NCBI RefSeq assembly: GCF_000633635.1
Contig: NZ_AYPQ01000007.1
Coordinates: 109,194 to 133,193, forward strand
DNA: 24,000 nt
From: Enterococcus crotali
GTDB lineage: Bacteria > Bacillota > Bacilli > Lactobacillales > Enterococcaceae
Direction of reading: 5' to 3'
In this document: piece by piece, positions 10,308 through 24,000 of the stretch
Layout: each line of letters starts with the position of its first letter
Position numbering within the stretch: the first letter of the stretch is position 1
Notes under the pieces: generated by a model
Database searches by the model: none
What the model was told of the DNA's origin: nothing
What the model saw: the letters and a program-made list of their open reading frames with translations, nothing else
Program-made: the position numbers and the translations under genes

Positions 10308-11249
10308 TTGAACAGTTTTGGAAAATATTTTCTTAAACGGGTCTTCTTTATGATCATCACATTGTGGCTGATCGCAACGATTACGTTTTTCTTAATGCAA
10401 TTATTACCAGGTACTCCTTATACCAACCAAGAAAAACTTAGTCCAGAAACAATCGCTATGTTGAACAAGCAATCAGGTTTAGATAAACCGGTGATCGTTC
10501 AATATGGAATTTACTTAAAAAATCTGCTAGTGGGCGATTTTGGAATTTCTTTCCAATTTAAAAACCAACCAGTAGCAAAACTTTTAGCAGGCCGTATCGG
10601 ACCTTCAGTACAATTAGGTGCGCAGGCAATCATCTTTGGTACGCTAGTAGGGATTTTACTAGGGATCATTGCAGCGATGCGCCAAAATACATGGGTGGAT
10701 ACATTAGCAACTTTAATGGCAATCTTAGGGCGTTCGATTCCTAACTTTGTTTTTGCGGTATTACTGCAATATATCTTTGCTATGAAATTAAAAGTATTAC
10801 CAATCGCAATGTGGAATGGGTTTGCTTATACGATTTTACCAACGATCGCGTTAGCAATGAGTCCAATGGCCGATTCCGCCAGGTTTATACGAACCGAGAT
10901 GGTCGAAGTTTTACATAGTGACTATGTAGAGTTGGCGCGTGCCAAAGGCTTGAGTCGCTGGCAAGTGGCCGTAAGACATGGACTTAGAAATAGTTTGATT
11001 CCTTTGATTACATTACTTGGTCCATTAGCTGTTGGTTTGATGACTGGATCTTTAGTTGTTGAAAATATTTTTGCTATCCCAGGTATTGGGGAGCAATTTG
11101 TAAAATCGATCATGACCAATGACTACCCAACAATTATGGCAGTAACTATTCTATATTCTGCTTTATTAGTATTTGTAATCTTGATCGTTGATTTACTTTA
11201 TGGATTGATCGATCCAAGAATTCGTGTTTCAGGAGGTGCCAAAGGTTAA
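10308..11249 (+). CDS. oppB: Oligopeptide ABC transporter permease
   Basis: BPD-type permease with the EAA-like loop (SDYVELARAKGLS). I prefer the TTG at 10308, 8 nt after GGAGG (10295-10299). The ORF-track GTG at 10299 overlaps the SD itself. Confidence 0.85.
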   Translation: MNSFGKYFLKRVFFMIITLWLIATITFFLMQLLPGTPYTNQEKLSPETIAMLNKQSGLDKPVIVQYGIYLKNLLVGDFGISFQFKNQPVAKLLAGRIGPSVQLGAQAIIFGTLVGILLGIIAAMRQNTWVDTLATLMAILGRSIPNFVFAVLLQYIFAMKLKVLPIAMWNGFAYTILPTIALAMSPMADSARFIRTEMVEVLHSDYVELARAKGLSRWQVAVRHGLRNSLIPLITLLGPLAVGLMTGSLVVENIFAIPGIGEQFVKSIMTNDYPTIMAVTILYSALLVFVILIVDLLYGLIDPRIRVSGGAKG

Positions 11250-12301
11250 TGGAAACAGTTGACTTAAACAATGTCCCAGAAAAAATCAAAAAGATACCTG
11301 CAAATGACTTCCAGCCTTTGGATACATCAACAACAAAGGAACGTGAACGAATTGCGACACCGTCATTAAGCTTCTTACAAGATTCTTGGCGTCGTTTGAA
11401 AAAAAATAAAGCAGCTGTGATTTCCTTGATTCTTTTAGGGATCATCATCTTTATTTCAATTATTACTATTTGGGTTTCACCTCATGACCCAACCCAACAA
11501 AATGTAGCTTATATCAATTTACCACCGCGTATTCCGATTTTAGACAGTATCAATGGCTTCAATGGAACAGCCACAGTCGCTGGAAAAGTTGTTGATAAAT
11601 ACGCACAAGCCAATGTTCCTGATAATGTAAACTTCTTCCTAGGAACAGACGGATTAGGCCGTGATGTATTGAGCCGTTTATTCATGGGAACACGTATCTC
11701 ATTATTGATCGCATTTATCGCAGCCTTACTTGATATTACGATCGGTGTAACATACGGTTTGATTTCAGGACTATTAGGCGGACGTGTGGATACAGTGATG
11801 CAACGTATCTTAGAAGTTCTTTCAGGAATTCCTAACCTTGTTGTGATGATCTTGATGCTGACTGTTTTTGATCCAGGTATTTTATCAATCGTGTTAGCGA
11901 TGGTTATTACCAACTGGATTTCGATGGCCAGGATCGTTCGGGCTCAGACCTTGAAATTAAAAGATCAAGAGTTCGTTTTAGCCGCCCAAACATTAGGTGA
12001 ATCTCGTTTGAAGATCGCCGTAAAACATATTTTGCCGAATATCTCAAGTGTGATCATCGTTCAAATGATGTTCAGTATTCCATCGGCAATTTTCTTCGAA
12101 GCGTTTCTAAGTTTCATCGGTTTAGGATTAAGACCGCCGACCGCTTCTCTTGGAACATTATTAAATGAAGGATATAAAACGTTCCGTTTCCTTCCATATT
12201 TGATGTGGATTCCTGCCGTAACTTTGTCAGTCGTAATGATTTGTTTCAACTTGTTAGCTGACGGACTACGTGATGCCTTCGATCCTAAGATGAAAGAGTA
12301 G
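11249..12301 (+). CDS. oppC: Oligopeptide ABC transporter permease
   Basis: 350 aa, OppC/DppC-like, with an N-terminal extension followed by six TM segments. The start overlaps the oppB stop (TAATG, 11247-11251). Confidence 0.9.
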   Translation: METVDLNNVPEKIKKIPANDFQPLDTSTTKERERIATPSLSFLQDSWRRLKKNKAAVISLILLGIIIFISIITIWVSPHDPTQQNVAYINLPPRIPILDSINGFNGTATVAGKVVDKYAQANVPDNVNFFLGTDGLGRDVLSRLFMGTRISLLIAFIAALLDITIGVTYGLISGLLGGRVDTVMQRILEVLSGIPNLVVMILMLTVFDPGILSIVLAMVITNWISMARIVRAQTLKLKDQEFVLAAQTLGESRLKIAVKHILPNISSVIIVQMMFSIPSAIFFEAFLSFIGLGLRPPTASLGTLLNEGYKTFRFLPYLMWIPAVTLSVVMICFNLLADGLRDAFDPKMKE

Positions 12302-12306
12302 AGTGA

Positions 12307-13368
12307 ATGACTATGGAAAAAGTATTAGAAGTAAAAGACTTACAGATTTCTTTTGATACGTTTGCTGGAAAAGTAAATGCTATTCGTGGTGTTAGCTTTG
12401 AGCTGTTCAAAGGGGAAACTCTTGCAATCGTAGGAGAATCTGGTAGTGGTAAATCAGTTACTACTAGAAGTATCATGCGATTATTGAGCAGCAATGCAAA
12501 CATCGATAATGGAGAAATTCTGTTTAAAGGTGAAGATATCGTACACAAAACGGAAAAACAAATGCAAACCATTCGTGGGAAAGAAATTGCAATGATTTTC
12601 CAAGATCCAATGACCTCATTGGACCCAACGATGCCGATCGGCAAACAAGTTGCGGAATCGTTGATCAAACACAATAAAGTTTCTAAAAAAGAAGGCTTAG
12701 ATCAAGCATTAGAATTATTAAAATTAGTAGGGATTCCAAACGCTGAAAAACGTTTGAAAAACTATCCTCACCAATTTTCAGGTGGACAACGTCAACGGAT
12801 CGTTATTGCGATCGCTTTGATTTGTTACCCAGAAGTTCTAATTGCAGATGAGCCGACAACAGCCTTGGATGTTACGATCCAAGCGCAAATTTTAGAGCTA
12901 TTAAAAGATTTACAACAAAAAATCAGCACATCGATTATTTTTATCACCCATGATTTAGGAGTGGTAGCCAATGTGGCTGATCGTGTAGCTGTTATGTATG
13001 GCGGACGTTTAGTGGAAGTGGGAACATCAGAAGAGATTTTCTACAATCCACAACATCCATATACATGGGGATTACTTGGTTCTATGCCAACAATGGAAGG
13101 AACGGAAGATAAGCTATATGCGATTCCAGGTTCACCTCCAGATTTGTTAGATCCGCCAAAAGGCGATGCTTTCTATCCGCGTAATGAGTTTGCAATGAAG
13201 ATCGACGCAGAAGAAGCACCACCGTATTTTGAAGTATCACCAACTCATAAAGCTGCAACGTGGTTATTAGCGCCACAAGCGCCAAAAATCACCCCTCCAG
13301 CTGAAATTGTAAGACGTTGGGCAATTTATGCTGAACGCCATAATACGACTGCAGGAGGCGTTAAATAA
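12307..13368 (+). CDS. oppD: Oligopeptide ABC transporter ATP-binding protein
   Basis: Walker A GESGSGKS, signature FSGGQRQR, Walker B LIADEPTTALD, and an OppD-type C-terminal extension. Confidence 0.9.
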   Translation: MTMEKVLEVKDLQISFDTFAGKVNAIRGVSFELFKGETLAIVGESGSGKSVTTRSIMRLLSSNANIDNGEILFKGEDIVHKTEKQMQTIRGKEIAMIFQDPMTSLDPTMPIGKQVAESLIKHNKVSKKEGLDQALELLKLVGIPNAEKRLKNYPHQFSGGQRQRIVIAIALICYPEVLIADEPTTALDVTIQAQILELLKDLQQKISTSIIFITHDLGVVANVADRVAVMYGGRLVEVGTSEEIFYNPQHPYTWGLLGSMPTMEGTEDKLYAIPGSPPDLLDPPKGDAFYPRNEFAMKIDAEEAPPYFEVSPTHKAATWLLAPQAPKITPPAEIVRRWAIYAERHNTTAGGVK

Positions 13369-14327
13369 TGAGTGAAAAAAGAAAAGTACTTTTAGATGTT
13401 AAAGGACTAAAACAATACTTTAACGTTGGGCGCCCTGACGAAGTTAGAGCAGTTGACGACATCAGTTTTCATATCTACGAAGGTGAAACATTTGGACTAG
13501 TAGGAGAATCTGGTAGTGGTAAATCAACAACTGGACGTAGTGTGATCCGTTTATACGATCCGACTGGTGGAGAAATCATTTTCAATGGTGACGATATCAG
13601 TAAAATTCGTTCAAAATCAGGAATGCAAGCATTCCGTCGTGAAGTACAAATGATCTTCCAAGATCCTTATGCTTCATTGAACCCAAGAATGAAAGTCAAC
13701 GATATCATTGCTGAAGGGATTGACATTAACCATTTAGCGAAAGATGCTGCTGAACGTGAAGCTAAGGTCAACGAATTACTAAAAGTCGTTGGACTTGATC
13801 CGAGCCATGGTACACGTTATCCGCATGAATTTTCAGGTGGACAACGTCAACGGATCGGAATCGCCAGAGCCTTAGCTGTTGATCCTCGTTTCATCATCTG
13901 TGATGAGCCGATTTCAGCGTTGGATGTATCGATTCAAGCGCAAGTAGTTAACTTATTGCAAGACTTACAAAAAGATGCTGGTCTGACTTATTTGTTTATT
14001 GCCCATGATTTATCAATGGTAAAACATATAAGTGACCGTATCGGTGTAATGCATAGCGGTAGATTATTGGAAATGGGTTCAAGTGATGATGTGTATAACT
14101 TTGGTGTGCATCCGTATACTGAAAGTTTACTATCAGCTATCCCATTGCCTGATCCAGATTATGAACGGACACGTAAACGTATCGTTTATAAACCACAACC
14201 TGAAGACAATAAAGAACGTAAACTAAGAGAAATCACTCCTGAACATTATGTTTATTGTTCTGAAGACGAAGTTGAAGGGTACCGTAAAAAAATCGAAGAG
14301 AAAAAAGCCAGAGCGAATCACGCATAG
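13368..14327 (+). CDS. oppF: Oligopeptide ABC transporter ATP-binding protein
   Basis: Walker A GESGSGKST, signature FSGGQRQR, Walker B IICDEPISALD. The start overlaps the oppD stop (TAATG, 13366-13370). Confidence 0.9.
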   Translation: MSEKRKVLLDVKGLKQYFNVGRPDEVRAVDDISFHIYEGETFGLVGESGSGKSTTGRSVIRLYDPTGGEIIFNGDDISKIRSKSGMQAFRREVQMIFQDPYASLNPRMKVNDIIAEGIDINHLAKDAAEREAKVNELLKVVGLDPSHGTRYPHEFSGGQRQRIGIARALAVDPRFIICDEPISALDVSIQAQVVNLLQDLQKDAGLTYLFIAHDLSMVKHISDRIGVMHSGRLLEMGSSDDVYNFGVHPYTESLLSAIPLPDPDYERTRKRIVYKPQPEDNKERKLREITPEHYVYCSEDEVEGYRKKIEEKKARANHA

Positions 14328-14346
14328 TCGTTTTGCAAACTAAATC

Positions 14347-14387
14347 CTAGCTAGGAAAAAGACTATTTTTTCTTAGCTAGAATTTTT
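14347..14387 (+). terminator. Intrinsic terminator of the opp operon
   Basis: A 14-bp stem (CTAGCTAGGAAAAA pairing with TTTTTCTTAGCTAG, one G-U pair) with a 6-nt loop, followed by AATTTTT. Confidence 0.7.
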
Positions 14388-14475
14388 AAAAAATGGGATG
14401 AAAAAAATGAAATGACTAGTAGAACTATTTCTTCTTTGAAAGAGTTCATAACTTACTTGTCAAGGTGGTCAAATA

Positions 14476-15603
14476 ATGAAGGTATTAAAGGCGTATAAAT
14501 ACAGACTTTACCCTACTTCATTGCAAGAGGAGTTCATTAAAAAAACTTTTTCTTGTGTACGGCTTGTGTATAACCTTTTATTACAGGAGAGAATTCAGCT
14601 GTATAAAGAACTGAAAGAAAATCCAGATTTAAAAGTAAAAATGCCAACACCAGCTCAATATAAAAAAGAGTATCCTTGTTTAAAGGAAGTGGATAGTTTA
14701 GCATTGGCAAATGCACAGGTTTACTTGGATCGAGCGTTCAAAAAATTTCATAGAGAAAAAGCAGTTGGTTTTCCTAAGCTAAAGCAAAAGAAAAACGCTG
14801 TTTGCTCCTACACAACGAATAATCAAAATGGTACAATTAAAATCATTGATGAGAAGTATTTAAAAGTGCCTAAGCTAAAATCGTTGATGAAAATGAAGAT
14901 GCATCGTCCAGTAATAGGGAAAATAAAGTCAGCGACAATTTCTTTGACTCCCAGCAATAAGTATTTCGTTTCAATCTTGTGTGAAGAAGAAATTCCGGCA
15001 GTTGAGAAGACGCATTTTGCAATCGGGATCACATTAGGCGCTTCTGAATTTGCTGTATTATCAAATGGCAGACGTTTTGACAATGATAAATATACAAAGG
15101 AATTTGAACGGCGGATCACGAGAGAAGAAAGAAAACTGAGGCGACGTAAAGAAATTGCAAAAATAAAAGGAACAGATCTTTCTCAGCAAAAAAACTACCA
15201 GAAACAAAAAGTGAAAGTTGTAAAAATGCGGGAAAAGTTGATGAATCAACGAATTGATTTTCTAAATAAAATCACGACAGAAATCGTTAGAAAGTATGAC
15301 TTGATTTGTATAGAAGATATTCATCAAGCAGATTTTTATAGAAATAATAAACTACATCGAGGCGTTACGGATGTTTCTTGGGCCTTGTTTGTTTCAAAGT
15401 TAGAATATAAAGCATCGTGGTATAACAAAAGATTGATTAAGGTTTCCGTGTGCCACAAATGTTCTGAACATTCAGATAATACCCGGATAAGTAAACTATT
15501 TTTTCATGAGATAAACGAAAAAAAGGGCAGGCAAGATCCAGAAACAGCGGCCAGTATTCAGGTACTGACACAGGGATTAAAAGAAGCAACTGTCAATGAC
15601 TAA
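14476..15603 (+). CDS. tldR: TnpB-like protein (IS200/IS605 OrfB lineage) with a degenerate RuvC/zinc-finger region; candidate nuclease-dead RNA-guided regulator (TldR-type)
   Basis: 375 aa. The N-terminus (KAYKYRLYPTSLQEEFIKKTFSCVRLVYN) and core are TnpB-like. The RuvC-I motif reads GITLG instead of GIDLG (Thr186, ACA at 15031-15033). RuvC-II Glu is retained (ICIED, Glu280). Only the first CxxC is present (CHKC, residues 326-329). The RuvC-III DRDxNAAxNI motif is degenerate (RQDPETAASIQV). SD GGTGG lies 7 nt before the ATG. No tnpA or IS ends are nearby. Confidence 0.75.
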   Translation: MKVLKAYKYRLYPTSLQEEFIKKTFSCVRLVYNLLLQERIQLYKELKENPDLKVKMPTPAQYKKEYPCLKEVDSLALANAQVYLDRAFKKFHREKAVGFPKLKQKKNAVCSYTTNNQNGTIKIIDEKYLKVPKLKSLMKMKMHRPVIGKIKSATISLTPSNKYFVSILCEEEIPAVEKTHFAIGITLGASEFAVLSNGRRFDNDKYTKEFERRITREERKLRRRKEIAKIKGTDLSQQKNYQKQKVKVVKMREKLMNQRIDFLNKITTEIVRKYDLICIEDIHQADFYRNNKLHRGVTDVSWALFVSKLEYKASWYNKRLIKVSVCHKCSEHSDNTRISKLFFHEINEKKGRQDPETAASIQVLTQGLKEATVND

Positions 15604-15748
15604 GTAAAAAAAACTGTAGGGACTACAGGGTTAGCCTAGGGCATATAAGATAGATATAGCGTTTAGTCGATCATTTGTCTTTTTCTAGGAAATTTCTAGT
15701 TAATAGAAATAGTTCACTAATTATTAGTTGATAAAAAATCAAACTTTG
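15560..15748 (+). ncRNA. Candidate omega-RNA-like guide RNA (scaffold plus short guide); boundaries approximate
   Basis: Stem-loops at 15614-15628, 15685-15710 and 15716-15728 are followed by TAAAAAATCAA (15732-15742), the exact complement of the oppA -35 region (7880-7890). The position is where a TnpB scaffold would be expected to end. There is no direct evidence of transcription, and the 5' end is unknown. Confidence 0.35.
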
Positions 15749-15865
15749 TTCTACTTATTCAAGTAAGTAATCTTCTTGGGTAAATAGAATGAAGTTTTTT
15801 GCCGTCTTTGATGAAATATATAGTACAATAATATTAAGTAAACTGATCCAAAAGGAGGATGATCA

Positions 15866-16651
15866 ATGAGAGAGTATAAAGCACTTGTGTTTTTTGATTT
15901 AGACGGTACATTATTAGGGACAGACTCAAAAATTTCCAAAGAAAACCATCAAGCAATTATGGCGTTGAAGCAAAATAAGATTCTACCACTGATTGCAAGC
16001 GGACGTTCACCAAAAGAAATCAGACAAATCACTACTGGAACTGCAATCGATTCTTATGTAAGTTTGAATGGTCAATTTAATGTGGTTGAAAATCAAGTGG
16101 TTTCAAAGCACCCGATCCCCTTAAAATTGATTCAAGAATTGATGGCGTTTTCTAAAGTACAAGGTCATTCGCTCGCTTGTTACACAGAAAATGACTATGC
16201 TACGCGCTATACAAACGCCAGTATGGAAAAATTGTATCAATTAGATAATGCACCATTGCCCCAAATTTCAAAAGACTTCCACCAAGAAAATGAGATCTAC
16301 ATGCTGTATCTTTTTTCAGAGGACGAAAGCAAAGATCCGCTGTATATAACAGAATTCTCCGATAAGTTGACTTTTTTCAGAGACAGTCCTTACTCGTTGG
16401 CCATCGTATTAAACGGACAATCAAAAAAAGCTGGTATTCAAGAAGTCATAAAAGCATTGGATTTAGTTGGGTTACCAACCTATGCCTTTGGCGATGGCAA
16501 TAACGATCTAGGGATGTTTGAAGCGGTAGAAACAGCCATAGCTATGGATAACGCAGGAGATCATGTAAAGAGCCAAGCAGATTTTATTACAAAGTCTCAT
16601 ATGGATGATGGTATTCGTTTTGCCTTAAAGCATTTTGAATTAATTGATTGA
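15866..16651 (+). CDS. Cof-type HAD-IIB family hydrolase (sugar-phosphatase-like)
   Basis: 261 aa with motif I FFDLDGTLL, motif III/IV ...K..GI...FGDGNNDLGMF. SD AAGGAGG lies upstream. Confidence 0.85.
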   Translation: MREYKALVFFDLDGTLLGTDSKISKENHQAIMALKQNKILPLIASGRSPKEIRQITTGTAIDSYVSLNGQFNVVENQVVSKHPIPLKLIQELMAFSKVQGHSLACYTENDYATRYTNASMEKLYQLDNAPLPQISKDFHQENEIYMLYLFSEDESKDPLYITEFSDKLTFFRDSPYSLAIVLNGQSKKAGIQEVIKALDLVGLPTYAFGDGNNDLGMFEAVETAIAMDNAGDHVKSQADFITKSHMDDGIRFALKHFELID

Positions 16652-16669
16652 TTGAAAGGAAGCGAGAAA

Positions 16670-17470
16670 ATGACAGTAAAAATGATTGCAGTAGATATGG
16701 ACGGCACGTTTTTAAATAGCCAGCAAGAGTATGACCGAGAAAGATTCGATGACTTGTACAAAAAAATGAAGCAGAAAAATGTTCGGTTTGTTGTAGCAAG
16801 TGGTAATCAGTATTACCAACTTAAATCTTTTTTTCCAGAAATCGAGACGGAATTATCCTTTGTGGCTGAAAATGGTGCGTATGTGGTTAGTGAAGGCCAA
16901 GAAGTTTTTACAGGTGAGATCGATCCAGAAGTCGTGCAAGATGTTCTGACTATTTTAGCGAACTTTGAGCATGGGCATATCATTCTTTGTGGGAAAAACA
17001 GCGCGTATGTTGCTGAGGATGAGCCTACTTCATTTATTGAACATGGCAGTAAATATTATCATCGTTTGAAAAAAGTACCAAGTTTATTCGATGTAAAAGA
17101 CGATACTTTGTTCAAGTTCGCCTTGAGTTTTCCTGTTGAGCAAGTAGCAGAAGTACTGGAGCAGTTGCATGAAGCATTAGGTGATAAAGTCATCCCAGTA
17201 TCAAGTGGGCATGGCGATGTAGATTTGATCATTCCGGGCATCCACAAAGCGCATGGATTGATGAAACTACAAGAATTATGGGGAATCAAAAATCATGAAA
17301 TAGCCGCGTTTGGAGACAGCGGTAATGATATAGAGATGCTAAAACATGCTGGATTTAGTTATGTCATGAGTAATGGGCAACCTAATGTCAAGGTAGCTGC
17401 TAAAGAAATCATCTTATCTAACGATGAAAATGGTGTGTTAGTGAAGATCGCAGAGTTATTAGAACAATAA
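16670..17470 (+). CDS. Cof-type HAD-IIB family hydrolase (paralog)
   Basis: Motifs AVDMDGTFLN and FGDSGNDIEML. I prefer the ATG at 16670 (MTVKMIAVDMDG), 7 nt after AAGGAAG. The ORF-track TTG at 16652 directly abuts the upstream stop. Confidence 0.85.
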   Translation: MTVKMIAVDMDGTFLNSQQEYDRERFDDLYKKMKQKNVRFVVASGNQYYQLKSFFPEIETELSFVAENGAYVVSEGQEVFTGEIDPEVVQDVLTILANFEHGHIILCGKNSAYVAEDEPTSFIEHGSKYYHRLKKVPSLFDVKDDTLFKFALSFPVEQVAEVLEQLHEALGDKVIPVSSGHGDVDLIIPGIHKAHGLMKLQELWGIKNHEIAAFGDSGNDIEMLKHAGFSYVMSNGQPNVKVAAKEIILSNDENGVLVKIAELLEQ

Positions 17471-17472
17471 GC

Positions 17473-17563
17473 AATCAAGACGAGCATGAGACAAAACTAA
17501 AGGTTAGTTCCGATTTGCGCTCTAAACGCGAATAAACGCTTTTGTCTCGGCCTTGTCTTGATT
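17473..17563. repeat. Long imperfect inverted repeat
   Basis: AATCAAGAC...GAGACAAAA (17473-17496) pairs with TTTTGTCTC...GTCTTGATT (17540-17563), with a small internal GCG/CGC stem. An A-run rather than a T-run follows. Confidence 0.5.
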
Positions 17564-17573
17564 AAAAAAAGTG

Positions 17574-17602
17574 TTGACAAAAATGAATTAATATCATATA
17601 CT
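17574..17602 (+). promoter_or_regulatory. Sigma-A promoter of the infC-rpmI-rplT operon
   Basis: Consensus -35 TTGACA (17574-17579), a 17-nt spacer, then -10 TATACT (17597-17602). Confidence 0.7.
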
Positions 17603-17741
17603 ATTAAAGTTGAGAAATGAAAGCAGAAGCACCCGCTTCTCGCCTTAGCTGACAGTGTCACTGGGCTGGATATAGGATTCCTTATGTCAATTGATATAAG
17701 TCTGAATCATTCGCGGGGTCTGTATACAGAGCCTGTTTTTT
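17603..17741 (+). promoter_or_regulatory. L20-leader-type ribosomal-protein leader with attenuator terminator
   Basis: A leader of about 215 nt lies between the promoter and infC, as in Firmicutes where L20 controls the operon by attenuation. A terminator hairpin (CGGGGTCTGTATACAGAGCCTG, 17714-17735) is followed by TTTTTT. The L20-binding fold itself was not verified. Confidence 0.55.
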
Positions 17742-17816
17742 ATTGTATTTTTTACAATAGCAGACTTTGAAGAAAAGGTTTCAGCAATGATTTTCTCTTA
17801 AAAAACTTGGAGGTGA

Positions 17817-18338
17817 ATGACCATAGCAAAGGATATGATGGTGAACGACGGCATTCGTGCACGCGAGTTACGTTTGATCGGACAAGACGGTGAACAATTA
17901 GGTGTAAAAACAAAAGTGGAAGCATTGCAGATCGCTGAAACAGCTAACCTAGATTTAGTTTTAGTAGCACCTACTGCGAAACCTCCTGTTGCGCGAATTA
18001 TGGATTACGGGAAATTCCGTTTCGAGACGCAAAAGAAAGAGCGTGAAGCTCGTAAGAAACAAAAAGTGATCAACGTAAAAGAAGTTCGTTTAAGTCCAAC
18101 AATTGACGTAAATGACTTCAATACAAAACTTCGTAATGCACGTAAATTCTTAGAAAAAGGCGACAAAGTGAAAGCTTCGATCCGTTTCAAAGGCCGTGCC
18201 ATTACCCACAAAGAAATTGGTCAGAAAGTTCTTGATCGCTTAGCAGAAGAAACTGCAGATATCGCTACAGTGGAACAAAAAGCGAAAATGGACGGACGCA
18301 GCATGTTTCTAACGCTGGCACCGAAGAATGAAAATTAA
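17817..18338 (+). CDS. infC: Translation initiation factor IF-3
   Basis: [28 protein letters not shown]... is canonical IF-3. The start is ambiguous: ATG 17817 lies only 1 nt after GGAGGTG, while the in-frame ATA at 17823 is at better spacing. Confidence 0.9.
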
Positions 18339-18449
18339 GCTAACAAGCTGATAACTAGTTAATGAAAATTTTTGAGGATGCTAGTTCAACTTTTTCAACT
18401 AATTTAGTTGAACTGTATACGAAATGAAAATGTAGGAGGAAAATTAGTC

Positions 18450-18650
18450 ATGCCAAAACAAAAAACACACCGCGGATCAGCAAAACGTTTCAAACGTACT
18501 GGTAACGGCGGGTTAAAAAGATTCCGTGCGTTTACAAGTCACCGTTTCCACGGCAAAACAAAAAAACAACGCCGTCAATTGCGTAAAGCAAGCATGGTTT
18601 CATCAGGCGATTTCAAACGTATTCGTCAACAATTAGCAAGAATGAAGTAA
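18450..18650 (+). CDS. rpmI: 50S ribosomal protein L35
   Basis: [33 protein letters not shown]..., 66 aa, with SD AGGAGG upstream of ATG 18450. The ORF-track start at 18408 is upstream read-through. Confidence 0.95.
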
Positions 18651-18782
18651 AAAAGCTTTTAGGATGATTTCCTTAAGCGTTTAGTAACAAAGCTTGCTGA
18701 ATTTGAGAATGAAATAATTCATGCAATAACTTAGCAATTAAAATAACTCATAGAGACAATAGATATTTAGGAGGAATTAACC

Positions 18783-19141
18783 ATGGCACGTGTTAAAGGT
18801 GGCGTAGTAGCCGTAAACGTCGTAAAAAGATTCTTAAGTTAGCGAAAGGCTATTATGGATCAAAACATACATTATTTAAAACAGCACAAGAACAAGTAAT
18901 GAAATCATACAGTTATGCATACAGAGATCGTCGTCAAAAGAAACGTGATTTCCGTAAATTATGGATTGCACGTATCAACGCAGCAGCTCGTATGAATGGC
19001 TTGAGCTATTCTAAATTAATGCACGGTTTGAAATTGGCAGAGATTGATATCAACCGCAAAATGCTAGCAGAATTAGCTGTTAACGATGCAGCAGCATTTA
19101 CTGCATTAGCTGACCAAGCTAAAACAGCGTTAAATAAATAG
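18783..19141 (+). pseudogene. rplT: 50S ribosomal protein L20, interrupted by a 1-nt frameshift as sequenced (probably intact in vivo)
   Basis: ATG 18783 follows AGGAGG and encodes MARVKGGVV, then the frame breaks near 18807-18810. The remainder ([48 protein letters not shown]...) continues in the frame of ORF 18899-19141. The repaired length is 119 aa. Confidence 0.9.
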
Positions 19142-19169
19142 TCTTACAAACCTTGATATAGCAACGTTT

Positions 19170-19200
19170 ATCCCTACTCATTTGAGTGGGGATTTTTTTT
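19170..19200 (+). terminator. Intrinsic terminator of rplT
   Basis: Stem ATCCCTACTC pairing with GAGTGGGGAT (one G-U pair), a 4-nt loop, and a T8 run. Confidence 0.8.
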
Positions 19201-19492
19201 GACCCAGATTTTGACCCAGAGATTTACCTTGCTCCATAAAAGCTGCAAAGATGTCAGCTGTTTCCTCTTCATCTTCCTTTTTGTATTTTCTTTTTTTAGG
19301 TTTTGATTGTATTCCATTTTCTTGTATTTCAACTTCTAAGCGTGAGAGCGCAATTTTTGCTTCCTTTATTGTTTTGAAGCCACGACGAGTGGTTTCTTTT
19401 TGTTTACCAGTTAATAGATCTATTCCTAAATATTTTTTTAACATGTATGCAGTAGTACCATTTTTTTTAGTATATTTTTTTATTGAGAGGAA
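19178..19492 (-). pseudogene. Tyrosine-integrase remnant (N-terminal arm-binding domain only)
   Basis: The open frame reads ...IKKYTKKNGTTAYMLKKYLGIDLLTGKQKETTRRGFKTIKEAKIALSRLEVEIQENG..., matching the N-terminus of phage/ICE integrases of Lactobacillales. There is no in-frame start after the stop at 19493-19495 until an internal ATG at 19444. The core-binding and catalytic domains are absent, and the frame runs into the rplT terminator. Confidence 0.65.
19197..19220. repeat. Perfect tandem duplication TTTTGACCCAGA x2 at the island junction
   Basis: 19197-19208 and 19209-19220 are identical. The duplication lies between the rplT terminator and the truncated end of the integrase remnant. Confidence 0.8.
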
Positions 19493-19515
19493 TCATCGTT
19501 TGACTCTAGCTTAAA

Positions 19516-19531
19516 CTGATATCAATATCAG
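19516..19531. promoter_or_regulatory. 16-bp palindrome (operator-like) between divergent island genes
   Basis: CTGATAT-CA-ATATCAG has perfect 7-bp arms. It lies 12 nt upstream of the GTG start at 19544. Confidence 0.35.
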
Positions 19532-19543
19532 AGAGGATTCGCG

Positions 19544-19753
19544 GTGATACAAGCCATTTACTTTTTGATTAATCATGGATTACCTATCCAACCAAAACTT
19601 ATAGGCAAAAAAGAACATTATGTTTGGTCTCCAGAATTGGCTGAGAAGTTAATTGATTTTGTCACACAGCATCAACGAATGGACTTAATCCCATTGATTC
19701 AGAACAAAACAAAAAATCGCTCCATCAAAAAGATGGAACGATCACCAAAATAA
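19544..19753 (+). CDS. Hypothetical small protein (island gene)
   Basis: 69-aa ORF with a GTG start 7 nt after GAGAGG. No family recognised. Confidence 0.35.
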   Translation: MIQAIYFLINHGLPIQPKLIGKKEHYVWSPELAEKLIDFVTQHQRMDLIPLIQNKTKNRSIKKMERSPK

Positions 19754-19794
19754 ACTAAACTAATTATAGCAAATATGAAAGGAAATGATTATAC

Positions 19795-20217
19795 ATGGCA
19801 AAAATGTTGAATATGAGAGACTTTGATTTTACAGCAATTGGCACTATTTTTGAATTAGATGAGGTGACACCAAAGTTTGCGACAGAAGAACGAACAAATG
19901 ATCAAGGAAAAACAATTATGGGACAAGATGGGCAACCAAGAAAATTCAATACGGATGAAATCGTTGGATATAAATACTCAGTGACGATCACAGAAGGCAA
20001 TTACAGAAAGCAATTACAGAAAGCAATTACAGAAAGCAATTACAGAAAGAAAGCGACTCAAGTGACAGTGAATAGTTTAGACAATCCGATTACGAACAAA
20101 GAAATTTTGAAACGAGAGAGTGTGAAATGCAAATTTGTGAATTTGGAGCCTTCTATGATTGGAAATCCGATGTATTTTAAAGCAGATAAAATTCAATTGA
20201 TTGAAATAGGGAAATAA
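19795..20217 (+). CDS. Hypothetical protein, possibly DUF961-like (conjugative-element associated); contains an internal 13-nt tandem repeat
   Basis: 140-aa ORF with SD AAAGGAAA upstream. It loosely resembles Tn916-type DUF961 proteins (VGYKYSV...VTV...KCKFVNLEPSMIG...YFKADKIQLI). A strong terminator follows. Confidence 0.45.
   Translation: MAKMLNMRDFDFTAIGTIFELDEVTPKFATEERTNDQGKTIMGQDGQPRKFNTDEIVGYKYSVTITEGNYRKQLQKAITESNYRKKATQVTVNSLDNPITNKEILKRESVKCKFVNLEPSMIGNPMYFKADKIQLIEIGK
19997..20048 (+). repeat. Tandem repeat GCAATTACAGAAA x4 (13-nt unit) inside a CDS
   Basis: Four perfect copies at 19997-20009, 20010-20022, 20023-20035 and 20036-20048, with a partial match (ACAGAAG) just upstream. 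Confidence 0.9.
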
Positions 20218-20222
20218 AATTT

Positions 20223-20254
20223 AGCAGATGATTGTATGGTCATCTGCTTTTTTT
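20223..20254 (+). terminator. Intrinsic terminator
   Basis: AGCAGATGA (20223-20231) pairs with TCATCTGCT (20240-20248) around an 8-nt loop, followed by a T7 run. Confidence 0.8.
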
Positions 20255-20312
20255 ATTTGATAAAAAATATTATCTTCTTTTACTAGTTTCTAAATATAAA
20301 ACATTAAAAAAA

Positions 20313-20353
20313 TGTCAACTTTGACAGGATTCCGAAAGAATTGTGTCAACTTT
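20313..20353 (+). promoter_or_regulatory. Direct repeats TGTCAACTTT x2 (31-nt pitch), the first forming the palindrome TGTCAA-CT-TTGACA; candidate regulator site/promoter of the rSAM operon
   Basis: Identical 10-mers at 20313-20322 and 20344-20353. TTGACA (20321-20326) lies within the first site. The repeats are 40-80 nt upstream of the rSAM start. Confidence 0.35.
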
Positions 20354-20390
20354 TTTTGATATTCTTATGTTAAATGGAGGAATTTTATTT

Positions 20391-21633
20391 ATGAAAAAAG
20401 AAATAGGCAACCATGTTGAAATTGTATCTAGTAAAGCAAACGGATATGTATTATTGGCTAATACTGTAAATGATCAGTGGATAAGAATATCGAAAGAAAC
20501 ATTTGATATTCTAAAGCAGTTACTCGAAGCAGATTTAGTAGATGATTTAGAATCAAATTTTTTCAATCCTTAGAAGATTTTCAATTTATAAAAAATACAA
20601 TTGAAGAACTTGAAAAAATGAATTTAATTAGTCGTTCAGGCGAGAAGTATGGAGTTGTTAATGAAACGGTATCGATAGAAACAACCCATCGATGTAATTT
20701 ACACTGTGCCCACTGCTGTATGAATGCGTCAAATAATATGAAAGAAGAATCTGATTTGTCTTTAGAGCAAATGAAAGAAATGTTAAATAAGATAATTGAA
20801 TGGAAACCTAAAAGAATTATGCTTAGTGGTGGAGAACCAATGCTTAGAAAAGATTTTTTCTTGATTCTTTCTTATTTACGGAGTAGATATAACGGAACGA
20901 TTATTTTATCCACGAATGGTACGTTTATAAATTCCAAAAATGCTAGTCAACTCGTTAAATGGTAGATCAATTTGAGATAAGTATAGATGGAATAGATGAA
21001 GAAACGTGTTCGGTAGTAAGAGGACGAGGAGTTTTCAAAAAAGTGATTAGAAGTATTGAAATATTGAAAAATTATAACGCTACTGTCATTAATTTATCTA
21101 TGATTTTCTCAGATAAAACCGAACATTTATTAGAACCATTTTACCAGTTAAATGAAAAATTGGAAACAAACCCTATTTGTCGGCTCTTCTCGCCAACTGG
21201 AAGAGGAGAAGAAAATAAGCAATTATTTACAGATAAAACAGAATTTGAAACGTATATTCCCTCTGATTATATGGTTGAGCACTCGGATAAGCCTTTGTCT
21301 ATTTGTTCTTGTACCGCAGGGAAAAAGGAAATATTCATAGATTATCAAGGGAACGTTTATCCCTGCCCTAGTTATATTCGTAGTGAACTCAAAATGGGAA
21401 ATATTTTTAAAATTGACAAATTGACAGATTTAACCGAAAATGGAAGTAGAAAAATATCCTTAACATTAGATAAAATAGATCCTAAGAATTCAGAAAATTG
21501 TTCTGAGTGTGAAGTGAAACTTTTTTGTTGGACATGCCCAGCTTCTATAGATGATTTTAAGTCAAAAGAAGCTTTGGATGATAATTGTCGGCGAATTAAA
21601 CCAGTGTTAATGAAACGGGTTTGGAATTCTTAA
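20391..21633 (+). pseudogene. Radical SAM / SPASM-domain peptide maturase with an N-terminal PqqD-like RRE; two 1-nt frameshifts as sequenced
   Basis: Three ORF pieces (20343-20573, 20618-20965, 20959-21633) join into one protein of about 414 aa if one T is added to the T6 run at 20558-20563 and one base is added at 20957-20961. The CX3CX2C motif (CNLHCAHC) is at 20693-20716. SPASM-type Cys clusters are present (CSCTAGKKEIFIDYQGNVYPCP; CSECEVKLFCWTCP). The N-terminal ~60 aa (VEIVSSKANGYVLLANTVNDQWIRISKETFDILKQLL) resembles a RiPP recognition element. Confidence 0.75.
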
Positions 21634-21648
21634 AAAAGAGGTGATTAT

Positions 21649-22335
21649 TTGTTGGTTAGAAAAATTCTTGTTGTGGAAGATGATATAGACTTAAATGAAG
21701 GAATAAAGTTTGTTCTAGAAAATGATACAACTGAGATTTTTCAAGCGTATTCTCTGACAGAAGCAAAAAAACAAATTAATCAAACATTCGATTTGATACT
21801 ACTTGATATCAACTTACCAGATGGAAATGGTATTGAATTTTGTAAAATAGTCAAACTTCGTTCAAGTAATAGTCCAGTTATTTTTATTAGTGCAAATGAT
21901 ACTGATATAGATGTTATTCGTGGATTAGAATTAGGAGGAGATGACTATATCATAAAACCCTTTAATTTAATGGTGCTCAGAGCAAGAGTGGAAACGGTAA
22001 TTAAAAGATACCATACTCCTATTACTGATGAAAATTATAGTGATCAAAATTATTGTTTTGATTTTGAGACAATGAATTATACTTGCAAAGGACAGGCTGT
22101 ATTTTTAAGTAATGCAGAGCAAAAATTATTAAAAGTATTAGTTAGTAATAGAGGGCAAATAGTGCAAAAAGAAAAGATAATTGAGTTTGTCTGGGGAATA
22201 GATGGAGATTATGTTGAAGAGAACGCTTTGGCGGTTGTAATTAAACGGCTTCGAAAAAAATTGGAAATGGATTCTGGCTCAAAAAATATTAAGAGCATTT
22301 ATGGCATTGGCTATAAATGGGAGAATTTTGAATGA
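21649..22335 (+). CDS. OmpR/PhoB-family response regulator
   Basis: Receiver domain (ILVVEDD, LLDINLPDGNG, IKPF) plus a winged-helix output domain (LLKVLVSNRGQIVQKEKI...GIGYKW). TTG start 6 nt after GAGGTG. Confidence 0.85.
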   Translation: MLVRKILVVEDDIDLNEGIKFVLENDTTEIFQAYSLTEAKKQINQTFDLILLDINLPDGNGIEFCKIVKLRSSNSPVIFISANDTDIDVIRGLELGGDDYIIKPFNLMVLRARVETVIKRYHTPITDENYSDQNYCFDFETMNYTCKGQAVFLSNAEQKLLKVLVSNRGQIVQKEKIIEFVWGIDGDYVEENALAVVIKRLRKKLEMDSGSKNIKSIYGIGYKWENFE

Positions 22336-23314
22336 GTATGAAAAAAAAGTTTCTCATTTTGTTGAATGTTGGCATAGTTTTAACACTAGGAATAAGCATC
22401 TATTATGAAACTACAAAAGCAATTATCTTTTTAGAATTATTTATTTTAGTAGCTATTCAACTAGTATCTTATTATTTTTTTTCAAGAAGTGTATATAATT
22501 TATTAGGAGATTTACATGAGTTACTGTCTACTCCAAATCTTAGCCAATTAGAAATAGAAACAGAAACTGAATTTTCTTCGTTAAAGAACAGATTGATTAA
22601 GTATACAAAAATCGAAGAGTTAAAGCGTGTTGAGAATGAACAATCAAAAAACAGATCGAAAAATTAATTTCAGATATTTCACATCAAACTAAAACCCCGA
22701 TTGCTAATATTATTTTATATAGTGAATTGTTATTAGAAAAAGAGCTAAAAGAAAAAAAATACGTTCAAACTATTACTAATCAAGCTGAGAAATTGCAATG
22801 GCTGATACAGAATTTACTACATCTTTCAAGATTAGAAAATGGGATTATACAATGTAGAAAAGAAGTTTACATGATTAACGATATAATTGTGCCGTGTTTA
22901 GAGCAATATAGAGTAGCATCTGATAATAAAAATTTAGATTTAATCTATGATCAGTTAAAAAATACATCTACATCAATATTTGCAGATCTCAAATGGACTC
23001 AAGAAGCTTTATCAAATATCATTGAAAACAGTGTGAAATACACTGTCGAAGGAAGTGTTCTAGTAGAAGTAGAAGTACAAGATTTATTTGTTTGTATTAT
23101 CGTTTCAGATACTGGGATTGGTATTGATGAAATAGATATGGCACACATTTTTCAAAGGTTTTACCGAAGTCAAAAAGTAAAACACATTCAAGGTGTTGGT
23201 ATAGGTTTGAGTTTAGCCAGAGAAATTATTGAAAAGCAAGAAGGGTATATGATAATTGAGTCTAAAATTGATAACGGAACAAAGGTTAAATTATTTTTAC
23301 CAAAGGAGGAATAA
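22332..23314 (+). pseudogene. Intramembrane-sensing histidine kinase (BceS-like architecture), 1-nt frameshift as sequenced
   Basis: ORFs 22332-22667 and 22727-23314 join if the A6 run at 22646-22651 is read as A7, giving ...NEQSKKQIEKLISDISHQTKTPIANI (H-box). N, G1 and G2 boxes follow (IENSVKYT, DTGIGI, GVGIGLSLA). The N-terminus has two TM helices separated by about 4 residues. The start overlaps the response-regulator stop (ATGA). Confidence 0.8.
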
Positions 23315-23425
23315 TGAGTTCGATTTTTGGGACTTATTATTCCTCTTTATGTCAATTTTGATAGAATTCTAACATAAGCTCGAAAGAATTATTTAATATA
23401 ATTGTTTTAGATAGGAGTGGGAAAT

Positions 23426-24000
23426 ATGAACTCGGTAAAAGTAGTAGATGTATTTAAAAAGTATGATAATGGAATTTTGAAGGTAAATGCTTTGAGAAAC
23501 ATTAATTTAACTATTCAATCTAGTGAATTTGTATCAATAGTAGGCACTTCAGGTAGTGGAAAATCAACTCTTTTAAATTTAATTGGAGGATTAGATTATC
23601 CTTCAAGTGGAGATGTTTTTGTCGATGATGTAAATTTTAAAGATATGAATGAAGAAGAGTTAACTATTTTTAGAAGAAGAAATATCGGTTTTATTTTTCA
23701 AGATTTCAATTTATTACCGTTGTTGAATGTTTATGAAAATATTGTATTACCTATTCAACTGGATGGAAAAAAAATCGATTGCGAATTTATTGATCAAATT
23801 ACTAGACAAATTGGCATACAGGATAAACTTGAATTCTATCCGAGTCAATTATCTGGAGGACAGCAACAAAGAGTAGCGATAGCACGCGCAATTGCTACGA
23901 AACCAGCCATTATTTTAGCAGATGAACCAACAGGGAACTTAGACTCAAAAACAAGTCAAGATGTTCTAGGCCTATTAAAAATGACTGGAAAAAAATATAA
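23426..24000 (+). CDS. ABC transporter ATP-binding protein, MacB/FtsE/BceA-like (3' end outside the window)
   Basis: This gene is not in the ORF track because no stop lies in the window. ATG 23426 follows AGGAGTGG. Walker [11 protein letters not shown]-loop FQDFNLLP, signature [14 protein letters not shown], Walker [12 protein letters not shown]. Confidence 0.85.

Follow-up and report, generated by a model that had tools for sequence, protein, structure and literature searches.

What would a radical S-adenosylmethionine (SAM)/SPASM enzyme modify if its gene reads as broken and no recognisable substrate peptide is encoded beside it? This question is raised by the gene here called rSAM_A, which lies in a stretch of 24,000 nucleotides from Enterococcus crotali (contig NZ_AYPQ01000007.1, positions 109,194 to 133,193; the whole stretch is referred to as the window). 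An earlier note, made from the letters of this stretch alone, left open whether the precursor of a peptide that is synthesized ribosomally and modified post-translationally (RiPP) is tiny, unconventional or located beyond the window, whether the maturase acts in trans, or whether the cluster is decaying. We consider it quite probable that rSAM_A, alongside a second radical SAM/SPASM enzyme, serves as a maturase in a conserved and so far uncharacterised RiPP cluster in which a 54-aa precursor is the substrate, and the puzzle of a substrate-less, broken-looking maturase would thus turn into an intact member of a conserved, undescribed RiPP family. Established here are which genes the cluster contains and how they are conserved, the Fe-S motifs, a predicted fold like that of the RiPP recognition element (RRE) and the artefactual nature of the frameshifts.

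20391..21633, forward strand: rSAM_A, predicted RRE-radical SAM-SPASM peptide maturase, 414 aa after repair (repair, identity to P0001, Pfam, AlphaFold2 fold)

A probable answer to the substrate question comes from the continuation of the cluster. In L001 (GCA_053761665.1, an assembly of the same strain) and L002 (a second strain), the gene order is rSAM_A, response regulator, histidine kinase, ATP-binding cassette (ABC) ATPase, an 819-aa FtsX-family permease and a second radical SAM gene, rSAM_B, followed by a 54-aa open reading frame (ORF), an S8 peptidase, a 562-aa ABC exporter and a DUF1643 protein. The 54-aa ORF encodes the putative precursor MLKFKKIEDKTLVKVQAQKNCTAAGHSYKYEGQGDCLNDCVQWDKPRYYASKTH (written in two parts, MLKFKKIEDKTLVKVQAQ-KNCTAAGHSYKYEGQGDCLNDCVQWDKPRYYASKTH), and its gene starts about 5.75 kb past the rSAM_A stop codon and about 3.8 kb beyond window base 24000. 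The earlier note was right in seeing no convincing precursor nearby, as small-ORF listings found none in the window and tblastn with four family members (E<=10) returned only noise there, and its option of a precursor beyond the window proved correct. The homologous clusters, which it proposed to compare for Cys-rich small ORFs, carry this conserved, Cys-containing peptide of about 53 aa. Its alternative of a maturase acting in trans is not needed.

The profile search gathers 37 sequence clusters of the precursor family, all of them unnamed or annotated as "hypothetical protein". The leader follows the pattern M(L)K-[IVF]-x-K-[ILF]-x-x-K...V..Q (the M(L)KIKKIxDK type), and the core is aligned as xNC[T/S]..G....Y.G...CL.DC....KPRYY.S. 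Conservation of at least 90% is reached by K3, K6, K10, Q18, C21, Y30, C36, D39, C40 and P46; the three Cys residues are invariant, and within the core DCLNDC…KPRYY the residue at position 44 (C40 +4) is D or N. No family model of Pfam or NCBIfam matches the precursor, and a weak Pfam hit to Casein_kappa (E 0.054) was discarded as a chance match. No paper describing this family came up in the literature, not even for the string KPRYY, which is absence of evidence only, subscription papers being mostly outside the search; a term search within PMC10288494 returned nothing on the family.

The second enzyme, rSAM_B, is a radical SAM/SPASM protein of 332-338 aa. Its sequence opens with the CX3CX2C motif, so that there is no RRE. 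The best model for rSAM_B is the PapB ranthipeptide maturase, with an end-to-end alignment at 185.6 bits against a cut-off of 340; SCIFF TIGR03974 gives 107 bits (cut-off 425), and CcpM and QhpD (110 bits; cut-off 453) are matched as well. The S8 (subtilisin-like) peptidase is closest to the QhpE model, with 102.8 bits against a cut-off of 165.

The loci compared represent nine lineages: E. termitis, Enterococcus sp. (L003, L004, L007), a Eubacterium metagenome-assembled genome (MAG; L009), Paraclostridium sordellii (L011), Clostridium argentinense (L012), Thermoanaerobacterium (L013), a human-gut metagenome contig (L014), Clostridioides difficile (L015) and Anaerobutyricum soehngenii (L016). 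In all nine the precursor family adjoins rSAM_A at a distance of 0.1-6 kb and in varying gene order, so that the conserved co-localisation with a short leader-plus-core gene, the generic mark of a RiPP maturase, is found throughout. It is mainly this co-occurrence in many lineages, with the order shuffled, that joins rSAM_A and the precursor into one system. The rSAM_A homologues accompanied by a precursor share 42-80% identity, those of 42-50% being common in Clostridia, and each locus compared with E. termitis carries one to three copies of the precursor of about 53 aa. An rSAM_B homologue occurs in all lineages examined except L014; the S8 peptidase, the ABC exporter and the ATPase with a large FtsX permease occur in most. 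A. soehngenii shows the classical layout that the earlier note had looked for, with the precursor directly upstream of rSAM_A and then rSAM_B, S8 peptidase, exporter, ATPase and FtsX permease. P. sordellii, C. argentinense, Thermoanaerobacterium and C. difficile have the two maturase genes side by side or overlapping, and in enterococci the regulator-kinase-ABC block sits between them.

In C. argentinense (L012 6403-9248) and C. difficile (L015 7689-10577), two rSAM_A paralogues of 414-416 aa flank a precursor or precursor-like sequence and are accompanied by a single rSAM_B. Between the paralogues of C. argentinense there is a second, possibly degraded precursor-like sequence (L012 7689-7828).

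Given this single family, it is scarcely credible that the true precursor is instead a tiny or unconventional ORF of the window, such as one of the two 15-codon ORFs noticed earlier or something within 19.1-20.4 kb. Small Cys-containing ORFs can indeed be listed mechanically in the window, and Enterococcus sp. VLC_013 has two Cys-rich ORFs of 34 and 38 aa about 1.3 kb upstream of rSAM_A. However, none of the small window ORFs is conserved in any related locus, and the region upstream of rSAM_A in E. termitis is different DNA, comprising an integrase remnant and ORFs of 69 and 140 aa. The small peptides of VLC_013 are absent from all other loci, for which reason we rejected them as general substrates; moreover, the VLC_013 locus also has the regular 54-aa precursor, and one conserved precursor family accounts for all nine lineages.

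The Cys-rich ORFs of VLC_013, MEELSLNIQVDGDVQTPEPYGFICGVLCSSGILC and MEELHVNTEPDPTIGVGVIGVLCGAICIGGVCGVLCAS, were seen upstream of rSAM_A in this organism only (L004 2407-2676; also L003, L005 and L007). Next comes a 235-aa membrane protein, a LytTR regulator and a kinase flank the ORFs, and neither Pfam nor NCBIfam has a model matching the two peptides. They possibly form a separate, unannotated bacteriocin or pheromone system.

As to the integrity of the gene, three ORFs in differing frames (20343-20573, with the ATG at 20391; 20618-20965; 20959-21633) are fragments of rSAM_A. One extra T in the T6 run (20558-20563) together with one extra A in the A3 run (20957-20959) restores a protein of 414 aa. 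Its identity to P0001 is 100% over the full length, P0001 being a "hypothetical protein" encoded by an intact gene in two Enterococcus termitis assemblies. Comparison of window positions 10392-24000 with L001 revealed no substitution and exactly four gaps over 13.6 kb, each being one base absent from the window within a homopolymer:

18810: CC in the window, CCC in L001, within rplT (18783-19141; alignment to L001)
20558..20563 (gap at 20557), forward strand: first frameshift of rSAM_A, T6 in the window, T7 in L001 (alignment to L001)
20957..20959 (gap at 20956), forward strand: second frameshift of rSAM_A, A3 in the window, A4 in L001 (alignment to L001)
22646..22651 (gap at 22645), forward strand: frameshift of the histidine kinase gene, A6 in the window, A7 in L001 (alignment to L001)

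The kinase is split accordingly into ORFs of 111 and 195 aa, and the absent C splits rplT, the essential gene for ribosomal protein L20. Since the deletions fall only in homopolymers, against a background of zero substitutions, and one of them breaks an essential gene, the frameshifts of rSAM_A are artefacts of the window assembly and not decay. That rSAM_A is a genuinely frameshifted pseudogene of a decaying cluster is thus very improbable, even if in the window rSAM_A is frameshifted twice and the kinase gene once, and damaged rSAM_A copies do occur in related Vagococcus and Clostridioides-bin loci. L002, from another strain, is intact at four of the four sites; for the present strain we reject the decaying cluster suggested earlier, as the gene is whole in two other assemblies and its frameshifts are not fixed. 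For genome scans this is a caution that gene decay can be simulated by homopolymer indels of the assembly; as a quick control, one can look for a frameshift in an essential gene nearby.

The repaired protein has the sequence features of its proposed class.

20693..20716, forward strand: CX3CX2C (C102, C106, C109), motif of the radical SAM [4Fe-4S] cluster (sequence; invariant in 55 homologues)
21310..21588, forward strand: SPASM region with seven Cys, C308-x12-G321-x4-C326, C371-x2-C374-x5-C380-x2-C383 and C400 (Pfam, alignment)
20391..20635, forward strand: predicted N-terminal RRE-fold domain, residues 1-82, four strands, then helices 35-46 and 61-76 (models, Foldseek)

Membership in the radical SAM superfamily is indicated by the CX3CX2C motif together with PF04055 (86.6 bits; gathering score 29.5). 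For the SPASM subfamily we required CX9-15GX4C ... CX2CX5CX2-3C ... C plus a match to PF13186, and rSAM_A shows both the seven-Cys motif and 30.9 bits against 21.5; Fer4_12 also scores above its Pfam cut-off. The three Cys of the radical SAM motif are invariant in the alignment of 55 homologues, as are C308, C326, C371, C374, C380, C383 and C400, and the latter seven would bind two auxiliary Fe-S clusters. A radical SAM/SPASM protein of about 414 aa, its CX3CX2C at exactly this position and two SPASM-type auxiliary Cys clusters had all been proposed from the letters alone, and all three agree with these data.

The AlphaFold2 model of rSAM_A, built from 55 homologues, has a predicted local distance difference test score (pLDDT) of 90.6, and its nearest solved structures are CteB, SkfB, SuiB, the anaerobic sulfatase maturase (anSME) and TigE. 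The profile of rSAM_A compared with PDB sequences also leads to CteB (E 9e-26), in agreement with the fold match. Residues 1-90 modelled alone reach a pLDDT of 92.1, and 17 of the top 18 Foldseek matches of this N-terminal domain in the PDB are RRE-containing proteins (TM-scores 0.43-0.62, E 3e-3 to 0.3), including TbiB1, the lasso B1 protein 6jx3, LynD, TruD, CteB, McbB and SuiB; some of these matches are RRE domains with a bound leader peptide. The fold looked for was the winged helix of solved RREs, in which three helices come after a sheet of three strands. An RRE is therefore predicted at the fold level and not at the level of sequence models, and we find the prediction persuasive because the top of the fold list consists almost exclusively of RRE proteins. 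The PqqD-like RRE that the earlier note placed at the N-terminus is supported in this form, sequence models being blind to the domain. Comparing the N-terminal profile with PDB sequences gave spurious matches only, namely designed beta-trefoil proteins with a "GQW(I/L)RI" hairpin.

Placement into a described family proved more difficult. The best NCBIfam match of rSAM_A is WgkB (WgkB/StrB-type Lys-Trp cross-linking), with 130.1 bits against a cut-off of 650 and covering the core only (residues 92-285). All other models likewise remain below their cut-offs: MftC TIGR03962 (110.6 bits; 265), the sactipeptide maturase StsB NF045574 (101.3 bits; 625), the heme/NirJ-type SPASM model (98.7 bits; 500), anSME TIGR03942 (79 bits; 349) and the ranthipeptide maturase PapB NF047865 (65 bits; 340). 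Sulfatase, mycofactocin or heme genes were found in none of the rSAM_A loci read. Thus the comparison with hidden Markov models recommended earlier confirms the radical SAM and SPASM assignment, and the homologous loci, carrying RiPP genes, do not place the enzyme with non-RiPP SPASM enzymes such as the sulfatase maturases.

Downstream of rSAM_A there is a module for regulation, sensing and transport, and upstream of it lie the elements of a promoter region.

20223..20254, forward strand: terminator-like hairpin with a T-run after the upstream 140-aa ORF
20312..20332, forward strand: operator-like box ATGTCAACTTTGACAGGATTC with the inverted repeat TGTCA-N4-TGACA, followed by the box CGAAAGAATT, located 59 nt before the start codon of rSAM_A
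21649..22335, forward strand: OmpR/PhoB-type response regulator, directly 3' of rSAM_A with no terminator between
22332..23314, forward strand: histidine kinase, 327 aa after repair, with transmembrane helices 7-25 and 31-49 and a loop of about 5 aa
23349..23369, forward strand: operator-like box, repeated as ATGTCAATTTTGATAGAATTC, 5' of the ABC ATPase gene
23426..24000, forward strand: MacB/LolD-type ABC ATPase gene, 5' part only, as the window ends within it

The hairpin implies that rSAM_A opens a new transcription unit. Within the window the 21-nt box ATGTCAAYTTTGAYAGRATTC has exactly two occurrences, each in a promoter region, where 0 are expected by chance, and its inverted repeat, in the general form TGTCA-N4-TGAYA, is found at matching places in related Enterococcus, Vagococcus and Clostridioides-bin loci. 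The box GAAAGAAT upstream of TATAAT is common to the rSAM_B promoter too; a generic sigma-70 promoter scan gave 25 sites against 25.4 expected. We infer that the regulator, composed of Response_reg and Trans_reg_C domains, would bind the inverted repeat and so co-control the rSAM_A-regulator-kinase and ABC operons.

The two predicted transmembrane helices of the kinase are only about 5 residues apart, so it would be without an external sensor domain, and together with the OmpR-type regulator it has the features expected of a BceRS-BceAB pair (two transmembrane helices, minimal loop). The permease differs: by crude hydropathy, the 819-aa FtsX-family protein has about eight transmembrane segments in two halves, each made of one segment, an external domain of about 215-250 aa and three further segments, whereas a BceB-type permease would have about 650 aa, ten segments and a single large loop between the seventh and eighth. 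Its sole NCBIfam match is the ADOP duplicated permease (37 bits). Hence, the OmpR-type regulator, the intramembrane-sensing kinase and the MacB-type ATPase named earlier stand, and the Bce part of that description does not, the permease being duplicated and MacB-like. The ABC transporter and the kinase may jointly sense the mature peptide and protect against it.

Several observations weigh against assigning rSAM_A to the 54-aa peptide. rSAM_A reaches the cut-off of no curated NCBIfam family; PqqD PF05402 has no match in the protein at E<=0.1 and matches 0 of 33 N-terminal domains of its homologues at E<=10, and the E-values of the RRE-like folds are modest. The link between rSAM_A and the peptide is drawn from gene context and sequence. 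In L014 no rSAM_B was found within the approximately 18 kb read. These data leave room for another reading, namely that rSAM_A serves the regulator, the kinase and the MacB-type ABC transporter as an accessory of sensing or resistance and acts on a different substrate, such as a foreign peptide that comes in or the product of a small ORF that escaped recognition. In the Enterococcus-type loci rSAM_A is the first gene of the regulator-kinase operon and shares its operator box with the ABC operon. Moreover, in the human-gut contig (L014 8001-9956; P0047, P0048) rSAM_A continues in frame into an ABC ATPase domain, giving proteins of 645-651 aa, and this fusion is followed by a second ATPase, an FtsX permease, a transposase, the precursor and a two-component system. 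Finally, orphan modules of rSAM_A, regulator, kinase, ABC ATPase and FtsX permease, with 72-97% identity to the E. termitis genes, were found in a Clostridioides-bin MAG (L008 3223-8924), a Vagococcus MAG (L010 10001-15817) and L006 (5143-11299; its contig ends 5 kb upstream), with neither rSAM_B nor the precursor in the DNA read.

Nevertheless, we regard the accessory role as unlikely. In the clostridial loci (L011, L012, L013, L015, L016) no two-component system stands between the genes, and rSAM_A abuts or overlaps rSAM_B beside the precursor. The predicted fold of the rSAM_A N-terminus is of the leader-binding type, and rSAM_B has no such domain. In addition, rSAM_A is damaged in two of the three orphan modules (truncated at its 5' end in L008, broken by an internal deletion in L010) while their two-component and ABC genes are intact, which suggests that the transporter module survives without rSAM_A. 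This sensing and immunity module may persist alone as a resistance cassette.

Returning to rSAM_A as a maturase of the 54-aa peptide, one can suggest the following order of events. The RRE of rSAM_A would bind the conserved M(L)KIKKIxDK leader, and rSAM_A would cooperate with the PapB-like rSAM_B, possibly as a complex, since the latter is without an RRE. Both enzymes would combine 5'-deoxyadenosyl radical chemistry with auxiliary clusters to introduce cross-links into the core. Most likely, the three invariant Cys would be closed into thioether rings, as by links of C36/C40 to the adjacent, likewise invariant Asp39 and to D/N44; rSAM_B probably forms the Cys-to-Asp/Asn thioethers around DCLNDCxxx(D/N). 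The S8 peptidase would then cut off the leader near the invariant Gln18, and the 562-aa ABC exporter would secrete the product, against which the MacB-type transporter (the ATPase with the 819-aa duplicated FtsX permease) may protect the producer. Perhaps this transporter, with the intramembrane-type kinase and the OmpR-type regulator, feeds back on the shared TGTCA-N4-TGAYA operator, resulting in autoinduction of biosynthesis and immunity.

A further step is conceivable and, in our opinion, rather doubtful: the rSAM_A/rSAM_B pair might install an undescribed combination of cross-links on the NC[T/S]...Y...DCLNDC...KPRYY core, and thereby represent a new RiPP class, widespread in gut Firmicutes (C. 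difficile and A. soehngenii among them), that is autoinduced in enterococci via the kinase, the regulator and the MacB-type transporter. Such a combination could be, for example, Cys-Asp/Asn thioethers plus a second type of bond at the invariant Tyr30 or in the KPRYY tail.

The cluster as a whole appears to be located on an integrative island that was inserted downstream of rplT and is now degraded.

19178..19444, reverse strand: integrase remnant of 88 aa, Arm DNA-binding domain only (PF14657, 41.5 bits), just after the rplT terminator

This remnant marks the left edge of a low-GC island bearing the cluster; the island is recognised from the position of the remnant after the rplT terminator, from a direct repeat and from the fall of GC from 0.37-0.40 to 0.28-0.31 from about 19.2 kb. 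The repeat, TTTTGACCCAGA, is 12 bp long and present in two copies at 19197-19220, overlapped by the integrase remnant.

Two other features of the window were observed. The 140-aa ORF at 19795-20217, which has no family match, contains 4.6 copies of a 13-bp tandem repeat (ACAGAAAGCAATT, 19990-20049). In L002 there is one unit fewer and the ORF is split into 85 and 51 aa; since 13 is not a multiple of 3, a change of copy number switches the frame, as at a phase-variable locus. Further upstream, a 375-aa IS605-family OrfB/TnpB gene (14476-15603) stands between the opp oligopeptide ABC operon and HAD-hydrolase genes and is intact in all three assemblies.

Uncharacterised radical SAM RiPP families are numerous, and the rSAM_A family is a well-defined one that is widespread in gut Firmicutes. 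The assembly collection lists the C. difficile precursor in about 1,000 blocks and that of A. soehngenii in about 930, and because these are so widely listed the product could be an ecologically relevant gut bacteriocin or signal. The family also offers a defined set of substrate and enzymes for studying the role of a second radical SAM enzyme and the recruitment of an RRE-less maturase.

Among characterised systems, CteB (the SCIFF/ranthipeptide thioether maturase, PDB 5wgg/5why), SkfB and SuiB are the best profile and fold matches to rSAM_A. They share with it an N-terminal RRE (predicted in rSAM_A), a radical SAM core, a seven-Cys SPASM region and a leader-bearing substrate. However, their identity to rSAM_A is only 17-19%, the SCIFF cut-off is missed, the precursor is unrelated to SCIFF, and the present cluster has a second, RRE-less radical SAM enzyme as a neighbour. 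The PapB/freyrasin systems resemble the rSAM_B side, as rSAM_B aligns with PapB end to end and in the core C36-x2-D39 is invariant, as is C40, which has D/N at +4. PapB is described as forming Cys-Asp/Glu thioethers (PMC9413430). In contrast to these systems, the present precursor has three Cys and no CxxxD repeat array, and the cluster includes a second maturase as well as an S8 protease.

Two radical SAM enzymes per cluster are also known for thuricin CD, where TrnC and TrnD act synergistically (PMC12093266), and for ruminococcin C (RumC; RumMc1/RumMc2), which needs both of its enzymes (PMC8188230). Those pairs are paralogues, each with its own leader-binding region, whereas here the enzymes belong to differing subfamilies with one RRE between them; the precursor is unrelated, and Calpha-thioether chemistry is not established for the present system. 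The RumC regulon likewise includes a two-component system and immunity ABC genes.

The combination of a radical SAM enzyme with a subtilisin-like protease recalls QhpD/QhpE of quinohemoprotein amine dehydrogenase maturation, where the radical SAM partner is a thioether former; unlike there, no Qhp subunits occur here, and what is modified is a small peptide of secreted type that has its own exporter. The Bce-type and LanRK-LanFEG modules are similar to the enterococcal one in the OmpR-type regulator, the two-helix kinase with a minimal loop, the adjacent FtsX-family ABC transporter and the 5-N4-5 inverted-repeat operator (the BceR consensus is TNACA-N4-TGTAA). They differ from it in that the present permease is an 819-aa duplicated MacB-like protein and the module lies between two maturase genes.

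Taken together, the kind of system is that of an ordinary radical SAM/SPASM RiPP cluster, with RRE, leader peptide, protease, exporter, immunity ABC transporter and two-component system. What sets it apart from the characterised systems is that neither enzyme falls into a curated family and the precursor family is unannotated, that two radical SAM subfamilies are paired with a single RRE, and that in enterococci a sensing and immunity module with a shared operator is placed between the maturase genes.

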